IMG/VR virus record: IMGVR_UViG_2671180547_000008
DNA length: 6,438 nucleotides
Source of the DNA: a virus
Lineage: Duplodnaviria > Heunggongvirae > Uroviricota > Caudoviricetes
Direction: 5' to 3' (one strand)
The stretch's first letter is position 1; every line of letters begins with the position of its first letter. This document shows, piece after piece, positions 1 through 6,438 of the stretch. Made by a program: the position numbers and the translations under genes. The notes under the pieces are model-generated. The model was not told the DNA's origin and ran no database searches. It saw nothing but the letters and a program-made list of their open reading frames with translations.

Positions 1-90
1 ATTTTCTACAATCGTCAGCGTCGTCACTCTCGTCTGGGGAATATCTCCCCGGCAGCCTTCAGGGAAAAATATCATCAGATGGCTGCTTAA
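1..90 (+). CDS. Transposase C-terminal fragment (DDE/integrase-type, partial at window edge)
   Basis: Translation of 1-87 gives IFYNRQRRHSRLGNISPAAFREKYHQMAA, then TAA at 88-90. The YNxxRxHSxLGxxSPxxF pattern is the conserved C-terminal motif of IS3-like DDE transposases. Confidence 0.7.
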   Translation: MFYNRQRRHSRLGNISPAAFREKYHQMAA

Positions 91-133
91 AAAAAGAACA
101 AATGGTAGTGTCCGCTATTGCCAGTACACCTCA
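1..133 (+). mobile_element. Right end of an IS element (IS3-family-like; possibly IS600-like), with the element body lying left of the window
   Basis: Bases 1-133 are the exact reverse complement of 6306-6438, and identity stops at ...ACACCTCA (133), consistent with a TG...CA-type IS terminus. Bases 1-90 encode a transposase C-terminus. The terminal sequence resembles the IS3 terminus as I recall it (GCAATAG.GGACAC). Family assignment is from motif memory only. Confidence 0.7.
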
Positions 134-317
134 GGATAGCGGTCATGTGATGCCGGTTTCCCGGTAACTCAGCACCGGTATCTGAGTCAACGTTTTCTCT
201 ACTGGGTCATTTCCGATACGCCCTGCCTGCTGACAGGCTTTCATCACATCTGAAAATATAGCACCCTGACTGATACTGTAGTACCTAAGGTTCCAGAAAC
301 TGTGATGTATCCGGCAC

Positions 318-345
318 AGAAAAGCCCCTCCGGAGAGGGCTGGAG
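318..345 (-). terminator. Candidate intrinsic terminator downstream of the tRNA genes
   Basis: The minus strand reads GCCCTCTCCGGAGGGGC (GC-rich stem with one bulge, tetraloop) followed by TTTTCTG. It lies about 230 nt 3' of the tRNA-Arg(UCU) end. Confidence 0.3.
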
Positions 346-577
346 AGTGGCGCTATGTGCCATTGCATGATGCCGGGTGCCTCCCGGTGAATTCAGTACC
401 AGCACCTGAATCCGCGATTATCCCATATACCTACTCGCTGATTGCCCCTCCGCACAGGGGGATTCACCATGCCAGTTTCTTTTAACAAACTCCCCGCAAA
501 ACAGACAACTGTCAACCGTCTGAATTGTGAGACATTTAAAAAAAAGGCCCGCAAAAGCGAGCCAGGGAAAATAAGTG

Positions 578-654
578 TGGCGCGTTGTACTGGATTCGAA
601 CCAGTGACCGATTGCTTAGAAGGCAATTGCTCTGTCCGGCTGAGCTAACAACGC
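578..654 (-). tRNA. tRNA-Arg, anticodon UCU (reads the rare AGA codon)
   Basis: The minus-strand sequence GCGTTGTTAGCTCAGCCGGACAGAGCAATTGCCTTCTAAGCAATCGGTCACTGGTTCGAATCCAGTACAACGCGCCA folds as a 77-nt cloverleaf. Acceptor GCGTTGT/ACAACGC, D-stem GCTC/GAGC, anticodon stem ATTGC/GCAAT with loop CTTCTAA, T-arm ACTGG-TTCGAAT-CCAGT, discriminator G and encoded CCA. Confidence 0.9.
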
Positions 655-667
655 ATGATGCAGATAA

Positions 668-744
668 TGGACCGCCATCGGGGACTTGAACCCCGCGCAG
701 CCAGCTTCGAAGGCTGGCGCTCTTTCCTGATGNNNNNNNNNNNN
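668..744 (-). tRNA. tRNA-Arg, anticodon UCG (reads CGA); the 5' end of about 12 nt is hidden in the N-run
   Basis: Visible minus-strand 3' portion: ...GAGCGCCAGCCTTCGAAGCTGGCTGCGCGGGGTTCAAGTCCCCGATGGCGGTCCA. Anticodon stem CCAGC/GCTGG with loop CTTCGAA, T-arm CGGGG-TTCAAGT-CCCCG, acceptor 3' strand ATGGCGG, discriminator T, CCA. The 5' acceptor and D-stem fall in the Ns at 733-760, so the 744 boundary is extrapolated. Confidence 0.7.
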
Positions 745-760
745 NNNNNNNNNNNNNNNN

Positions 761-1733
761 GCCCGAGCGCCAGTGCCGCTTTCACTGTCGAACCCAACCC
801 CATGAAAAAATCTGCAATCAGGTCACCCGGACGACTGCTAGCGCTGATTATCTGCTGCAGCATTTCTGCCGGTTTTTCGCACGGATGTTTCCCGGGATAG
901 AACTGCACCGGTTTATGCGTCCACACATCGGTATACGGCACCTGCACCGTCACGCCAAAATACCGCCGCAGATGTTTATATTCACTCAGCAGCTCCGCAT
1001 ACTGCCGGTTCAGTGAGGTATACGTATCCACCAGCTGGTGGTGGAGCTTTTCCAGTTCACCACGCCGATGCTTCTCTTCTGCCACCCGGGCAAACAGCGC
1101 CTGTAATTTCAGATAATCGCTTTCATTCGGCAACTGCCACTGACCGGCACTGAACCAGTGCGACACCATGTTTTTCTTTCCTGTGGCATCTGCAATCTGT
1201 TTTGCCGTTATCCCCAGGGCAGCTCGCGCATCACGAAAGTAAGAAATCAGCGGGGCCATCACATGCTGTTTCAGTGCACTGCCCTTCGCCGCATACCCGG
1301 CATCTTTCGGACGATACGGCCCCTGATAATGTTCCGCGAACAGAATGCGCTCTGTGGCGGGGAAATACGCCCGCAGGCTTTCCTTGTTGCATCCGTTCCA
1401 GCGTCCGGACGGCTTCGCCCAGATAATATGGTTCAGCACACTGAAGCGTTCACGCATCATGATTTCGATATCAGATGCCAGGCGATGACCACAGAACAGG
1501 TAAAGACTTCCGGCAGGTTTCAGCACCCGCCAGAACTGCGCCAGACACTGGTCCAGCCACTTCAGGTAATCATCGTCGCCCTTCCACTGGTTATCCCAGC
1601 CCTCAGGCTTCACTTTAAAGTACGGCGGGTCCGTGACTATCAGGTCAACAGAATTTTCGGGTAACGACCGGATAAATTCCAGGCAGTCGGCGTTGATTAA
1701 CTCACAACTGGATATTTTTACAGTATTAAGCAT
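761..1733 (-). CDS. Beta-class N6-adenine DNA methyltransferase (phage-type orphan MTase); C-terminus interrupted by the N-run and probably truncated
   Basis: Starts at ATG 1733. DPPY (motif IV) lies near the N-terminus (IVTDPPYF) and the FxGxGST SAM-binding motif I (DFFMGLGSTVKAALALG) near the C-terminus; motif IV before motif I defines the beta class. There is a central HTH-like insert (ITAKQIADATGKKNMVSHWF). The six-frame ORF nominally runs to 645, but only through Ns and across the tRNA, and the post-N translation (IRKERQPSKL...) lacks the expected R-x-IG-x-E continuation. Confidence 0.85.
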
Positions 1734-2305: not shown

Positions 2306-3127
2306 TTACCTAGTTACCTTTTTTAACTGCCGCTCAGCCCATGCTTCTTCAATATCAAACCGGGTCACCAGCGCATCATAAAATTTCTTAACTGTTTTTT
2401 CCCATGACGCGCGTGTTATCTGGTTTGTCACCTCGCATATAGCATTAAATGCCTCCGTTGATGGTAGTCTTTCATAGCCACGACCACCACAACGCTGGCA
2501 GTCTCTGATAACAGGCATACCACGTTTTACCGACTCTTCACGATGAATGGCGACACCACGCCCACGGCAATCCTTACAGGCGGTGGAAACCTCACCCTTT
2601 CCGCCACACTCCGGACAGGCAACTTTTACCACCTCCCTGACTTTTTTCCATTCTTCCCAGTAAGACGGATACACACCTTTCGTACACTTTGCCCATACCG
2701 GCGGCTTACCATCCGGATACTGGATCTTGTTTGTAAAAACCTCGCTTTCAATAAATTTTTTTCCGTGACAGCAGGGGCACTGTTTTTTGCTCGCCGCGCT
2801 ACGGGCATAATCTTCAAACGCATACGAAGCCATAATACGCATCACTGCCGGTTTTATTTCTGCCGGGAGTTTTCTTAACGCCGCCACGCGATCACACCGA
2901 CTGAGTGCATATTCTGTCAGCAATTCTGTTGCCCGCTCTCTGTCATTCATACTAATGCCCATTTTCCCAAGGAACGCAGAAACCCCCATCTCAGCCCGAT
3001 TCTGTGTCATGCCCTGCGCGGCCATCACATCAGTGATACTCAGCGCATCTTTCGACGTTGAGGCCGATGCATCAGTCAGGCCGGGGGATTTTGGGGAGTA
3101 GTATTTCGGTAAATCTTCCAGTTTCAT
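2306..3127 (-). CDS. Putative late-gene antiterminator (Q-like, QuuQ-type) with repeated CxxCxGxG zinc-finger motifs
   Basis: 273-aa ORF. Its ATG (3127-3125) overlaps the rusA stop as ATGA. It carries one CPCC and three CxxCxGxG motifs (CPECGGKG, CKDCRGRG, CQRCGGRG). Position after rusA and before a promoter-terminator pair matches Q genes of lambdoid phages. Identity is inferred from synteny and motifs, not alignment. Confidence 0.5.
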   Translation of the reverse strand: MKLEDLPKYYSPKSPGLTDASASTSKDALSITDVMAAQGMTQNRAEMGVSAFLGKMGISMNDRERATELLTEYALSRCDRVAALRKLPAEIKPAVMRIMASYAFEDYARSAASKKQCPCCHGKKFIESEVFTNKIQYPDGKPPVWAKCTKGVYPSYWEEWKKVREVVKVACPECGGKGEVSTACKDCRGRGVAIHREESVKRGMPVIRDCQRCGGRGYERLPSTEAFNAICEVTNQITRASWEKTVKKFYDALVTRFDIEEAWAERQLKKVTR

Positions 3128-3504
3128 TTTTTGACCTGCCCTTCAAGCATTATGGGATAAATCTTCACCCCCAGACGTCCACCAGATACTGGCTGAGCAC
3201 GAACGATATTGATTTCATCAAACTGCTCATCGTCCATTAGCAACCCCGCATGCGTCAGCGCATCCAGCGGCGCTTTCAGAATATTGTCCAGGTCACGGCG
3301 GCGCTTATCCGGTGGTTCTGCAATAATTTTTATTGCCAACCTTCCGGACAGGCTTAATTTCAGCCGCTGCTGGCGAACAATAAGCGCCACTGCCCGGCGA
3401 TAACGCTCCCCGGCTTTTGATACAAAATATGTGCTGCCACGACGACGCCAGTAAGTGTTCACCGTCGGCGGGTAAGGTAAAACAAATTCTATGCGCTCGG
3501 TCAT
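3124..3504 (-). CDS. rusA: RusA-type Holliday junction resolvase (crossover junction endodeoxyribonuclease)
   Basis: The 126-aa product has LPYPPTVNTYWRRRG, DKRRRDLDNILKAPLDALTHAGLLMDDEQ and VSGGRLGVKIY, which match the recalled RusA signature blocks ([48 protein letters not shown]). Its start follows the DUF968 stop directly (TAAATG). Confidence 0.9.
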   Translation of the reverse strand: MTERIEFVLPYPPTVNTYWRRRGSTYFVSKAGERYRRAVALIVRQQRLKLSLSGRLAIKIIAEPPDKRRRDLDNILKAPLDALTHAGLLMDDEQFDEINIVRAQPVSGGRLGVKIYPIMLEGQVKK

Positions 3505-4563
3505 TTATGCTTTCCACTTCAGAACACCCGAATTTCTCGCGTGCATTAAAAAACGAATCAGCAACAACAGCTGACTGCCGTGTTTCTCTTCAAAATCTTT
3601 TACTCCGGCATGTAGTTCGTTACGGCATTTACGGCATAACGGAATAACAAACAAATCATCAGCCTTTGTTCCCATCCCTCCCAGTCCATGACCAATGATG
3701 TGATGCGGATCATCTGCCTGATTGCCACACGTCATGCATTTCTGCGTTTTTACCCAGCGCGTGTATACAGGCATCTCTTCCCGTTGTGATTTCTGGCGCT
3801 GGAGATACTGAGCCGGTGACTCCGGATCAACGGCAATGCTGACCACCGTCTTTTCCTGTGGTGGGTTCTGTTGCTGGTGGACGTGAGGCAGTAACGCAAT
3901 ATTTTTTGTGCGCTGCTTCAGTATGCTGGTGGCTGTCTGCTCTCCCGGTATGATGTCGCTTTCACTGTACACAGAGCGAATTTTTTCCGCACGCAACCCC
4001 AGCGAACGACGTAATACCGCTTCCGGTAGCGCGTCCGCCACCTGATTGCGGACCGCCCACCAGGATAATTCAGCCAGAGATAATTCACGCTCCTGCGTAC
4101 CGCTTATTGCGTGACCGATGACGTCAATCATCCATGCTGACAGGTTTTGATGAGCAAGTTGCTCGAGTGATTCGGATGTCTGGTCACGCAGCTGGTTGTC
4201 GCAGTGCCAGCACAACACCATTGCGCCGGTACCATAACGGTGAATGACGGTTTCGCTGTGATGATAATCGCCGTGTGGCCACTGGCAGGATTTAATATGG
4301 CGCAACAGCCAGTCAGACAATGCACCAGCACCACCAGCAGCACGAATCACCCGTGCGTTACTGAAAAACGGCAGCAATGTTTTGTCTTCCACCAGCGGCT
4401 GGCGAGCGGCAGGAACGACCCCGGACGGCAGATTACGCATGCTTTTTGGTTCCGGCTCCACCAGTATTCTGCCGTTATGGAATGCTGACATTGATTCACG
4501 GCCTGGCTTAACGATAACCAGACCGAGTTCCGGTACCAGAACAGGTCGAAGTAATACCCGCAC
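3505..4563 (-). CDS. DUF968-like prophage protein (YdfU-like) with a C-terminal HNH/zinc-binding-like motif
   Basis: 352-codon ORF starting with GTG at 4563, 4 nt after GGAGG; an alternative ATG at 4491 gives MSAFHNGRIL. The C-terminus has CMTCGNQADDPHHIIGHGLGGMGTKADDLFVIPLCRKCRNELH (CxxC...HH...CxxC...H). Size and position between a small gene and rusA/Q match ydfU in Qin-like prophages as I recall them. Confidence 0.6.
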   Translation of the reverse strand: MRVLLRPVLVPELGLVIVKPGRESMSAFHNGRILVEPEPKSMRNLPSGVVPAARQPLVEDKTLLPFFSNARVIRAAGGAGALSDWLLRHIKSCQWPHGDYHHSETVIHRYGTGAMVLCWHCDNQLRDQTSESLEQLAHQNLSAWMIDVIGHAISGTQERELSLAELSWWAVRNQVADALPEAVLRRSLGLRAEKIRSVYSESDIIPGEQTATSILKQRTKNIALLPHVHQQQNPPQEKTVVSIAVDPESPAQYLQRQKSQREEMPVYTRWVKTQKCMTCGNQADDPHHIIGHGLGGMGTKADDLFVIPLCRKCRNELHAGVKDFEEKHGSQLLLLIRFLMHARNSGVLKWKA

Positions 4564-4564
4564 A

Positions 4565-4920
4565 TTACCTCCAGATCCGTTGCTGGAATGTGCGGGACGG
4601 ACGCGTTGGCCGTTCGGAGTAAGGGAGCCTGACGGAGATTATCCAGTGACGGTAGTCGAGGCTAAGGGCTTTTTTAACCTCGCATCCGCGCCTGCGGTAA
4701 CACTGAATGAGCCATTCGGCCTGTTCTTCAGTGCATGGGGGATGCTGGTACCAATCAGATTTAAATGCGTGAGAGCGCCGCCCGTGCCTGCTGGCAAAGA
4801 CGGCTGAATTATCAGAATTGTGTAGTCTGGAAGGCAGTGGCTGACAATAGCGCCATTCTCAACGCGCACAGTATAGAGGCCATCTTCACTAAAAATTTCA
4901 CGTAATTCTTCGATTTTCAT
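4565..4920 (-). pseudogene. Small nin-region gene with a frame discontinuity (rem-position gene); an intact 93-aa frame runs 4639-4920 but looks degenerate after about 40 aa
   Basis: ATG at 4920 has GGAAGGA 8 nt upstream. Frame 0 reads MKIEELREIFSEDGLYTVRVENGAIVSHCLPDYTILIIQPS, then turns low-complexity (LPAGTGGALTHLNLIGTS...). A second frame with no start codon reads ...TEEQAEWLIQCYRRRGCEVKKALSLDYRHWIISVRLPYSERP... and ends with TAA at 4565-4567, overlapping the DUF968 start region (GGAGGTAATGTG). Confidence 0.4.
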
Positions 4921-5003
4921 CAACAGAATCCTTCCAGATAAATAGCACTCCCCTGTTCGGGGTCCATCCCTCTTCTCCCTGCGCGCTACTTAAGTATTTT
5001 TGA

Positions 5004-5032
5004 TTCTATTCCGGCACCATCTAAAACTTCAA
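5004..5032 (-). promoter_or_regulatory. Candidate sigma70 promoter for the nin-like operon (small gene, DUF968, rusA, Q)
   Basis: Minus strand has -35 TTGAAG (plus 5027-5032), an 18-nt spacer and -10 TAGAAT (plus 5004-5009). It lies between the hok terminator and the RBS of the 4920 gene. Confidence 0.35.
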
Positions 5033-5040
5033 ACGCGTTG

Positions 5041-5071
5041 AAAATAAAAACAAAAACCCGCCGAAGCGGGT
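5041..5071 (-). terminator. Rho-independent terminator of the hok transcript
   Basis: The minus strand reads ACCCGC-TTCG-GCGGGT followed by TTTTGTTTTTATTTT. It lies about 75 nt 3' of the hokD stop. Confidence 0.7.
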
Positions 5072-5140
5072 TAAGTGTGGGTGCATTGAGGATGCCTGCC
5101 CCATCAGAGGTGGCGAGGGATTTCTCCCCCGCCTGGTCTC

Positions 5141-5296
5141 TTACTCCTCAGGTTCGTAAGCTGTGAAGACAGCGACCTCCGTCTGGCCGGTTCGAATTCG
5201 TACCTCGCAGAGGTCTTTCCTCGTTACCAGTGCCGTCACTATGACGGTTAAACAGATGACGATCAGGGCGATTAACATCGCCTTTTGCTGCTTCAT
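5141..5296 (-). CDS. hokD: Hok-family type I toxin (HokD/RelF-like, 51 aa)
   Basis: The product MKQQKAMLIALIVICLTVIVTALVTRKDLCEVRIRTGQTEVAVFTAYEPEE has the Hok single transmembrane helix and the conserved C-terminal pattern (compare Hok ...[26 protein letters not shown]), and matches my recollection of E. coli HokD. An in-frame upstream ATG at 5353 (MNGKSRLASYVPKGKEKQA-) occupies the position of the mok start in the R1 hok/sok leader. Confidence 0.9.
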   Translation of the reverse strand: MKQQKAMLIALIVICLTVIVTALVTRKDLCEVRIRTGQTEVAVFTAYEPEE

Positions 5297-5344
5297 AGCC
5301 TGCTTCTCCTTGCCTTTCGGCACGTAAGAGGCTAACCTAGATTT

Positions 5345-5425
5345 GCCGTTCATAGATTGAGCCTCAGATTAATGTTAAGCGTCTTGCCGGACGCGTAATG
5401 TTAACTGGGGCTTTTCTCTATCTGC
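5345..5425 (+). ncRNA. Candidate Sok-like antisense RNA with its promoter (-35 at 5310-5315, -10 at 5333-5338)
   Basis: The plus strand has TTGCCT, a 17-nt spacer and TAACCT, which aligns by recollection with the R1 sok promoter (TTGCGC, 17 nt, TATCCT). The predicted transcript is antisense to the mok-like start region and ends in a U-rich stretch (GGGGCTTTTCTCTATCTGCCTTTTGG). Exact 5' and 3' ends are not determined. Confidence 0.35.
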
Positions 5426-5472
5426 CTTTTGGTGTTCATGCCTGAGACAGATAGCCTCAAGCACCCGCTGCA

Positions 5473-5501
5473 ATTCTACTTAACTCTCCTTTTCCCGCAA
5501 A
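5473..5501 (-). promoter_or_regulatory. Candidate hok mRNA promoter
   Basis: Minus strand has -35 TTTGCG (plus 5496-5501), a 17-nt spacer and -10 TAGAAT (plus 5473-5478), followed by GCTTGAGGCTATCTG, which resembles the recalled 5' end of R1 hok mRNA (GCGCTTGAGGCTTTCTG). Confidence 0.4.
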
Positions 5502-5507
5502 CCGTTT

Positions 5508-5591
5508 TTATCCCCAGCGGCAAATCGAATACACCACCAGCGCCACCGCCATCGCAATTCCTACCGTTGTTAATGCTTCAGGCCAGGTCAT
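5508..5591 (-). CDS. 27-codon hydrophobic micro-ORF, translationally coupled to the 114-aa ORF
   Basis: Its ATG (5591-5589) overlaps the TGA stop (5590-5588) of the upstream ORF as ATGA. The product [27 protein letters not shown] has an 18-residue hydrophobic core with a basic/aromatic C-terminal cap, as in small membrane peptides. Below the ORF-track length cutoff. No homology evidence. Confidence 0.3.
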
Positions 5592-5932
5592 CGTAAAATA
5601 TCCTCCACGCTTATCAGTCCGTTCCGCTCCAGATAACTCATCGCCTTATCCGGTAATTTGCAGTCTGGCTTCGCTTTCCTCAGTTGCCAGGTTAACTGCT
5701 TTACCAGCATGGTTAACTCATCGACCAGACGCTGATATCCCACTGGTTTGTATTCATGCAATTTACCGGCTGGCTCTGCTGCCAGCGATACCAGTGCGAT
5801 TTCCAGAACAGCAATATCCATCTTATATGTGCGGATGATGTCATGGTCGATTGTGCCCGGTATGCACAGTCTCTGTGCTTCAATAGTCTCCTCTGCGTGA
5901 GCTATTAACTGCTCTCTGGTAAAAGTCGTCAT
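5588..5932 (-). CDS. Hypothetical protein (114 aa), paralogous to the upstream 55-aa ORF
   Basis: Its ATG overlaps the stop of the upstream ORF (ATGA at 5932-5929). The N-terminus MTTFTREQL... and the block [10 protein letters not shown]...EYK match MTTITKERI... and [10 protein letters not shown]...EKY in the 55-aa ORF. Amino-acid composition is protein-like. Confidence 0.55.
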
Positions 5933-6096
5933 GCCGTAGCCCCTTCTTGATATTTTTCAAACCAGAACACAACCGGCTCTGCTTCCAGCGATGCCAGCGC
6001 AATCCGTGCCAGTTCCATTTGTTCACCACGGGTAAGCCCGTTTTCAAGCGGGTTTTTAATGAACAATTCAATACGTTCTTTGGTAATAGTGGTCAT
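5929..6096 (-). CDS. Hypothetical small protein (55 aa), first gene of the coupled trio
   Basis: ATG at 6096 is preceded by a strong SD (TAAGGAG, 6 nt spacer). The product is [55 protein letters not shown] and its stop overlaps the next ATG. Not in the ORF track (under 60 aa). Confidence 0.45.
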
Positions 6097-6106
6097 GTGT
6101 TACTCC

Positions 6107-6305
6107 TTAACCCGCAGTGCTTTCAACTGATGAGGGGAACAAAATCTTTTCATCAAACCCTGCATTCATATCATGAACAGCAACACACCAATCCATCGAC
6201 GAACGATTATCAAGAGCCTCCATGATTTCATCCATGCGGCGTAGGTCATACAGGTAAATGCTTTTATCGCCAATGGTGTAAAAGCCAATTTTTTTCGGTG
6301 ATGGA
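6107..6305 (-). pseudogene. 3' remnant of a gene truncated by the right-hand IS insertion
   Basis: The frame runs from the IS junction to TAA at 6107-6109: ...KKIGFYTIGDKSIYLYDLRRMDEIMEALDNRSSMDWCVAVHDMNAGFDEKILFPSSVESTAG. The track ORF 6107-6337 only finds an ATG inside the IS, so the N-terminus is IS-derived. The SD of the next gene overlaps its stop, so it was once the upstream gene of that operon. Confidence 0.4.
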
Positions 6306-6438
6306 TGAGGTGTACTGGCAATAGCGGACACTACCATTTGTTCTTTTTTTAAGCAGCCATCTGATGATATTTTTCCCTGAAGGCTGCCGGGGAGATATTC
6401 CCCAGACGAGAGTGACGACGCTGACGATTGTAGAAAAT
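6306..6438 (-). mobile_element. Right end of a second, inverted copy of the same IS element, with the element body lying right of the window
   Basis: Exact reverse complement of 1-133. The plus strand begins TGAGGTGTACTGGCAATAGCGGACAC at 6306. Confidence 0.7.
6349..6438 (-). CDS. Transposase C-terminal fragment (partial at window edge), identical to the copy at 1-90
   Basis: Mirror image of 1-90; the stop codon is at 6349-6351 on the minus strand. Confidence 0.7.
   Translation of the reverse strand: MFYNRQRRHSRLGNISPAAFREKYHQMAA

Follow-up and report, generated by a model that had tools for sequence, protein, structure and literature searches.

A complete hok/mok/sok-type toxin-antitoxin locus around hokD in a lambdoid prophage sequence

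We analyzed a 6,438-nucleotide (nt) stretch of tailed-phage DNA (IMG/VR record IMGVR_UViG_2671180547_000008), called the window here, and found that its hokD-like gene belongs to a complete hok/mok/sok type I toxin-antitoxin locus on the minus strand. The best explanation of these data, in which we have high confidence, is an intact cassette that belongs to the hokD/hokW subgroup and is carried in the nin region of a lambdoid prophage, where early genes flank it on one side and rem-like, DUF968, RusA, and Q genes on the other. In silico, every element is present, intact, and conserved, and the 5' end of the mRNA has two alternative pairings. This type of locus is already known and annotated, and the copy in the window is at most an allele of hokW/hokD. 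The result matters little beyond correct annotation: RefSeq names just the 51-amino-acid (aa) "hokD" at such loci and leaves out mok and sok, so the complete form could look new to someone who knows K-12 alone.

Elements of the locus and their promoters

The original prediction had described a self-contained type I system with its own promoter, an R1-like leader, a mok-position start codon, an antisense promoter, and a strong terminator. Reading the sequence, we found all of these elements within 5041-5501, at a locus that runs on the minus strand, and completeness was upheld by an Rfam match and by alignment with hokW/sokW. The features are as follows.

5500..5045, minus strand: complete hok/mok/sok type I toxin-antitoxin locus, with promoter, 5' leader, mok, hok, 3' fold-back element, and terminator
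5473..5500, minus strand: hok/mok mRNA promoter; -35 TTGCGG (5500-5495), 16-nt spacer, -10 TAGAAT (5478-5473), predicted +1 at G5466
5455..5466, minus strand: tac element, the mRNA 5' end GGGUGCUUGAGG (MFE fold, 61-nt 5'-end fold, Rfam helix 1, and covariation)
5407..5413, minus strand: ucb, or anti-SD box, AAGCCCC (61-nt fold and Rfam consensus structure)
5368..5405, minus strand: Sok-target stem-loop of the mRNA, the opposite strand of which is the Sok terminator hairpin (folds; identical in VT2-Sakai)
5345..5415, plus strand: Sok antisense RNA, about 71 nt (sokW misc_RNA of AP000422 projected by alignment; ends predicted)
5310..5338, plus strand: sok promoter; -35 TTGCCT (5310-5315), 17-nt spacer, -10 TAACCT (5333-5338) (sequence)
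5141..5353, minus strand: mok, 70 codons; ATG 5353-5351, SD GAGG 5365-5362; in frame with hok and ending at the same TAA
5141..5296, minus strand: hok toxin gene, 51 aa; ATG 5296-5294, SD AGGAG 5310-5306 (open reading frame [ORF] list and Pfam)
5079..5091, minus strand: fbi (fold-back inhibition) element CCUCAAUGCACCC, complementary to tac (MFE fold and covariation)
5045..5072, minus strand: intrinsic terminator of the hok mRNA, AACCCGC-TTCG-GCGGGTT and then TTTTGTTTTT (terminator scan; common to K-12 hokD)

The frame at 5296..5141 encodes a small hydrophobic toxin of the Hok/Gef family, of the expected size of about 50 aa, and its product matched Pfam HOK_GEF with an E value of 3e-23 (81.6 bits against a cutoff of 22). 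The protein is identical to K-12 HokD, with one substitution in the aligned coding sequence, and the same 51 aa are encoded by two K-12-type truncated, relE-flanked loci (L021 and L023). The Tyr47 codon of hok lies within a UACG motif (5158..5155, minus strand), the TadA A-to-I editing site, which is nearly invariant over a 35-locus alignment; at the equivalent position 6% of K-12 hokD mRNA is reported to be edited, changing Tyr to Cys (PMC12214031).

Upstream of hok, the Rfam covariance model RF01794 ("sok") recognized the structured mRNA leader, with its tac stem, Sok-target hairpin, and mok TIR. The match covered the full model (positions 1-157) over 176 nt of the window (5466..5291) and scored 112.4 bits against a gathering score of 59 (E = 9.4e-26). 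On the other strand is a cis-encoded antisense Sok gene whose promoter lies inside mok and whose predicted transcript is complementary to the mok initiation region (AUG and SD). Sok is predicted to consist of an approximately 13-nt single-stranded 5' tail over the mok AUG, a long hairpin, and a U-run. The candidate hairpin folds at -31.4 kcal/mol (z = -5.6).

Both promoters are identical to their counterparts in VT2-Sakai. The hok promoter aligned without differences to the region upstream of hokW, and with +1 at G5466, the inferred transcription start, T, A, and T fall at -12, -11, and -7, a geometry that agrees with R1 promoter mutations (PMC9841398). The antisense promoter, predicted as TTGCCT, 17 nt, and TAACCT, is present on the plus strand, one base to the left of the position that could be counted from the text of the original prediction. 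It points into the mok start region and is the same in hokW-sokW. Its -10 hexamer matches the consensus at 3 of 6 positions; in the hokW-sokW study, mutagenic primer YO-421 replaced exactly the complement of TAACCT and antitoxin activity was lost (PMC8621323), so the -10 originally chosen is experimentally validated in a homologue.

A generic sigma-70 consensus scan called neither the hok nor the sok promoter, both being below its thresholds, and promoter support therefore comes from identity with the hokW/sokW promoters and not from consensus strength. The empty scan and the 3-of-6 match of TAACCT are what could be said for promoter-like hexamers and hairpins having arisen by chance around a bare hok ORF. 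We give that explanation practically no credence, and it is already refuted by the E value of 9.4e-26 over the 176-nt leader, by the feature-for-feature match to an annotated and experimentally dissected locus, and by covariation in the long-range helix described below. The features of the locus are far beyond chance.

Folding of the hok mRNA

The leader begins GGGTGCTTGAGGCTATCTG at 5466 and carries the motif GCTTGAGGCTATCTG at 5462-5448; R1/R100-type loci carry GCTTGAGGCTTTCTG, which is identical at 14 of 15 positions, so the resemblance to the R1 leader was correctly predicted. At the other end, the terminator was predicted to be strong, and its 7-bp stem (5072-5055) is indeed G+C rich. A weak similarity to isrK/rsmX at 5051-5137 (Rfam, 25 bits, below gathering) is just the hok 3' untranslated region and terminator.

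The predicted full-length mRNA (5466..5050) folds at -169 kcal/mol (z = -7.05). In the minimum-free-energy (MFE) structure, nt 1-12 (GGGUGCUUGAGG) pair with nt 376-388 (CCUCAAUGCACCC, window 5091-5079), a long-range 5'-3' tac-fbi pairing that locks the full-length molecule. The partners predicted for tac are fbi in the full-length RNA and ucb in the processed RNA. When the first 61 nt were folded in isolation, GGG.GCUU and AAGCCCC formed a stem enclosing a hairpin (-25.8 kcal/mol, 80% of the ensemble). This tac-ucb stem, which is also helix 1 of the Rfam model, characterizes the translatable form, and it was recovered in the 61-nt and 142-nt folds and in the Rfam structure. The ViennaRNA MFE of the 3'-truncated mRNA had no tac-ucb stem and formed another local 5' hairpin instead. 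The predicted open conformation thus has the backing of the Rfam model and the 61-nt fold but not of all predictions. In the closed form, ucb may pair with the mok SD region CUGAGGC, as judged by hand from complementarity and from the R1 analogy (PMC9841398).

We examined covariation in an alignment of 35 loci from Escherichia, Shigella, Photorhabdus, Kluyvera, Pantoea, Citrobacter, and Erwinia, with plasmid and phage copies. When the MFE structure of the window was laid on this alignment, 82.5% of cells were paired, versus 38 to 45% with the partners slid. Double-sided changes were present at 46 pairs, and 0 of 500 shuffles reached the observed value. The tac-fbi helix itself was 91% paired over the 35 loci and included a compensatory pair, UA in 20 and CG in 13.

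The mok reading frame

The mok frame maps exactly onto the annotated mokW of AP000422. It is an upstream, overlapping frame with its own SD, and it starts 57 nt before hok, within the 56 to 58 nt characteristic of such frames. As predicted, the ATG at 5353 is in frame with hok and opens a 70-codon ORF that shares the hok stop. The placement of R1 mok in another frame was also right, given a 58-nt offset in R1 and in the R100 sequence. R1 numbering puts the AUG of mok at 116-118 and that of hok at 174-176, with a Mok of 70 aa (Le Rhun et al., PMC9841398); many IncF plasmids, R100 (NC_002134) among them, carry the sequence with this 58-nt offset at 100% identity.

The suggestion that an in-frame mok is an unusual arrangement that changes the coupling logic did not hold. 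K-12 mokC and hokC have a common stop at 16751, mokA and hokA also share theirs, and mokB does not share the hokB stop (RefSeq annotation). The 70-aa mokW and hokW of VT2-Sakai end at one stop, as do mok and hok of phage Rac-SA53. We surveyed 44 related loci, taken from one-genome-per-species contigs, plus the window, requiring an SD-preceded mok ATG; these loci are not phylogenetically independent. The in-frame offset of 57 nt was the commonest state, with 33 loci, and one further locus with two candidate mok ATGs was counted as 57. An offset of 58 nt, which gives the +1 frame as in R1 and 55 to 68 codons, was present in 7 loci, and an offset of 56 nt in 4, where mok is a 19-codon ORF whose TGA overlaps the hok ATG. 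The mok frame is therefore not conserved in the family but varies among offsets of 56, 57, and 58 nt, a pattern that argues against a special new coupling logic.

A locus on an IncFII plasmid (L002, NZ_CP128973.1 32000-33155) encodes a Hok identical to R1 Hok and has the 57-nt in-frame offset. Taking it as R1 would put R1 mok in frame, but the numbering in PMC9841398 and a query with the R1/R100-type sequence contradict this and mark L002 as a variant with a 57-nt offset. Compared with the R1/R100 type, it has a 1-nt indel early in mok (TCTGACAACATC versus TCTAGTCCACATC), so that mok is in frame in L002 and in the +1 frame in the R1/R100 type.

Within mok, two stretches behave differently. Codons 2-5 (window 5350..5339, minus strand) are the complement of the Sok 5' tail and vary more across the 45 loci than any other part of the leader, which is elsewhere near-invariant; variants include AACGGCAAATCT, CTGAACACATGT, TCTCACAAATGT, and CATAGCAACATA. 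This stretch might set the specificity of Sok-hok pairing in genomes with up to 11 copies. Codons 7-19 are fixed at the nucleotide level, third positions included, since the sok promoter and the hok SD overlap this stretch, a constraint on DNA or RNA and not on protein.

An in-frame mok implies a 70-aa, N-terminally extended Hok of putative activity. A stronger version would make the extended protein the functional toxin, controlled directly by Sok, with the internal hok start dispensable. With the 57-nt offset, each ribosome that starts at 5353 must indeed give a 70-aa protein containing the whole of Hok, and the in-frame state is the majority in the clade (33 of the 45 loci). We nevertheless consider this version very unlikely. 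Close relatives have offsets of 58 or 56 nt, codons 2-5 are hypervariable and codons 7-19 are constrained as nucleic acid, and the hok SD (AGGAG) and hok ATG are kept in nearly all surveyed loci. In R1, moreover, it is translation of mok that counts and not its product (PMC9841398), a view that the free mok frame supports.

Related loci, distribution, and proposed mode of action

The architecture of the cassette is equal base for base to that of VT2-Sakai (Sakai prophage 5, Sp5; AP000422, NC_000902) and 933W-type phages. The VT2-Sakai annotation, which is years old, has a 213-nt mokW, a 156-nt hokW with the same stop, and the sokW antisense RNA. The window aligned with this locus from end to end, at 89% identity over the mRNA; the mokW start fell at 5353, the hokW start at 5296, the stop at 5141, and sokW at 5345-5415. 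Both loci lie in lambdoid prophages, and in both mok has 70 codons in frame with hok, Hok has 51 aa, and Sok has 71 nt. Conservation extends beyond the promoters to tac, ucb, fbi, the SDs of mok and hok, and the Sok-target hairpin. They differ at mok codons 2-5, the complement of the Sok 5' tail (MNGKS in the window versus MLNTC in mokW), at the Hok C terminus (TAYEPEE versus VDYESEK), and after fbi, where the window has a K-12-type terminator unlike that of hokW. The Sp5 locus maps near H0150-H0158, and that of the window lies between early genes and rem-like/DUF968/rusA/Q.

The hokW-sokW pair is the closest experimentally studied relative and suggests a role in prophage-induced lysis. HokW is toxic and localizes to the inner membrane (Takada et al. 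2021, PMC8621323), sokW neutralizes it, partly via RNase III and Hfq, and both RNAs were seen on northern blots. After mitomycin C, hokW-sokW gave faster lysis and doubled phage release, and in Sp5 there was a RecA-dependent disappearance of sokW RNA that was left unexplained (PMC8621323).

The K-12 counterpart, hokD (relF) of the Qin prophage, is near-identical over window 5310..4980, which covers the hok SD, coding region, fbi, terminator, and downstream flank, and the downstream neighbors rem, ydfU (DUF968), and Q are the same. Upstream of 5310, MG1655 has relBE, beginning with the end of relE, and hokD comes last in the relBEF operon. The contrast with relBEF drawn in the original prediction is thus real: K-12 homology starts only at the hok SD, and the hok promoter, tac, ucb, Sok target, mok start, and sok gene, all upstream of that point, are absent from K-12 hokD. 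The window, with its full leader, is not of the K-12 type in which hok directly follows relE without its own leader or sok; it is the undisrupted, ancestor-like form of K-12 hokD. This alignment agrees with the literature, in which K-12 hokD is described as inactivated by genomic rearrangement (PMC12214031).

The hok/mok/sok (parB) locus of R1/R100 has the same order and logic: tac and ucb come first, followed by the mok SD, a sok promoter within mok, and then fbi and a terminator. It also shares the leader motif GCTTGAGGCT(T/A)TCTG. The mok AUG is at +114 in the window versus +116 in R1, and the hok AUG at +171 versus +174; the offset of 57 nt keeps mok in frame, whereas 58 nt in R1/R100 puts it in the +1 frame, encoding an unrelated 70-aa peptide. 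The R1 locus is plasmid borne, its tac hairpin is longer and its Sok-target hairpin shorter than in the window, and the sequence of its Hok has diverged much further; HokW, a close relative of the window Hok, has 44% identity to R1 Hok (PMC8621323). K-12 hokC/mokC/sokC (gef) has a tac near-identical to that of the window, a closely similar mok region, and an in-frame mokC of 69 aa with the hokC stop. It is chromosomal and outside any prophage, IS186 interrupts it downstream in K-12, and its Sok-target hairpin is shorter than that of the window.

At least 80% of 4980-5600 was found in 2,253 of 5,426 complete E. coli genomes, often in several copies, which are mostly labeled just "hokD" or "Hok/Gef family protein." The locus is also carried by 78 phage records, among them Stx-converting phages, Rac-SA53, Tritos, and vB_EcoS-689R5 (97.8% identity). 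In E. coli Ch1 it is flanked by replication genes, DUF551, hokD, rem, DUF968, RusA, and Q, a typical lambdoid early/nin arrangement. The neighbors in the window are DUF968, RusA, antiterminator Q, and tRNA-Arg, in the same gene order as in E. coli Ch1 and phage 689R5. Near-identical hokD-type loci were also present on contigs labeled Veillonella, Xanthomonas pisi, Acinetobacter idrijaensis, Haemophilus, Collinsella, and "Scatousia" (L013, L019, L046, L057, L065, and L072). Since these are short contigs or bins of metagenome-assembled genomes, they most likely reflect E. coli or phage contamination or mis-binning rather than true hosts.

Hok toxicity, Sok neutralization, and 3' processing of the mRNA are known for homologues only, namely hokW-sokW (PMC8621323) and R1 (PMC9841398), and it is by analogy with them that we infer transcription, processing, killing, and a biological role for the window allele. 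An intact sequence is no guarantee of activity, since chromosomal hok loci are sometimes inactive though intact. The locus could accordingly be a structurally complete but functionally silent chromosomal relic in a defective prophage, carried passively and contributing nothing to killing or phage biology. The chromosomal loci hokA, hokB, and hokC, although intact, were reported neither to mediate postsegregational killing nor to be activated by rifampicin (summarized in bioRxiv 10.1101/2025.08.07.668861), and K-12 hok loci other than hokB are regarded as inactivated (PMC12214031). We consider a silent relic improbable here. None of the regulatory elements is broken, and both promoters match exactly those of hokW-sokW, which is active in experiments. 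The leader is also highly conserved across thousands of genomes and the 78 phage records, free phage isolates included, a pattern that argues for purifying selection.

For the active cassette that we favor, a mechanism can be proposed by homology with R1 hok/sok and Sp5 hokW-sokW. A stable mRNA of about 420 nt would start at 5466, and pairing of tac at its 5' end with the 3' fbi box would give a closed RNA from which neither mok nor hok is translated. Slow 3' trimming would take off fbi, whereupon the 5' end would pair with ucb and free the mok ribosome-binding site. Ribosomes translating mok would then cross the hok start region and allow Hok synthesis and, with mok in frame, would also yield the 70-aa extended Hok. 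Short-lived Sok (5345-5415) would pair with the mok start region, leading to a translation block and RNase III cleavage. Once Sok is gone, for example because the element is lost or the prophage is induced, the 51-aa membrane toxin would be made.

The hok mRNA is codirectional with all flanking prophage early genes (2306..6337, minus strand). Upon induction, read-through from the early promoter might therefore meet the sok promoter head-on and turn Sok off, while producing hok RNAs with a foreign 5' end that lack the tac-fbi lock. The cassette would then be an induction-timed lysis accessory and not an addiction module, and in this in-frame allele the 70-aa Mok-Hok fusion might act as a second membrane-active isoform. 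We regard this as a speculative and rather unlikely extension of the mechanism; if true, it would explain the RecA-dependent loss of sokW RNA in Sp5.

Several other features of the window were observed. The tRNA-Arg (578..654, minus strand, anticodon TCT) is of a kind typical downstream of Q in lambdoid and Stx phages. Just downstream of it, at 312..501 (minus strand), is a strong Rfam match to the small RNA STnc100 (123.6 bits against a gathering score of 47), adjoined by a weak second copy at 85..273 (minus strand, 21.8 bits). A 362-aa ORF at 645..1733 (minus strand), whose translation looks like a DNA methyltransferase, contains 28 masked N at 733..760. Finally, a 26-codon hydrophobic ORF at 5591..5511 (minus strand) has an ATG that overlaps the stop of the ORF at 5588..5932 and ends 10 nt before the hok -35. 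Its start is also contained in cloning primer YO-432 of the hokW paper and is thus conserved upstream of hokW too.
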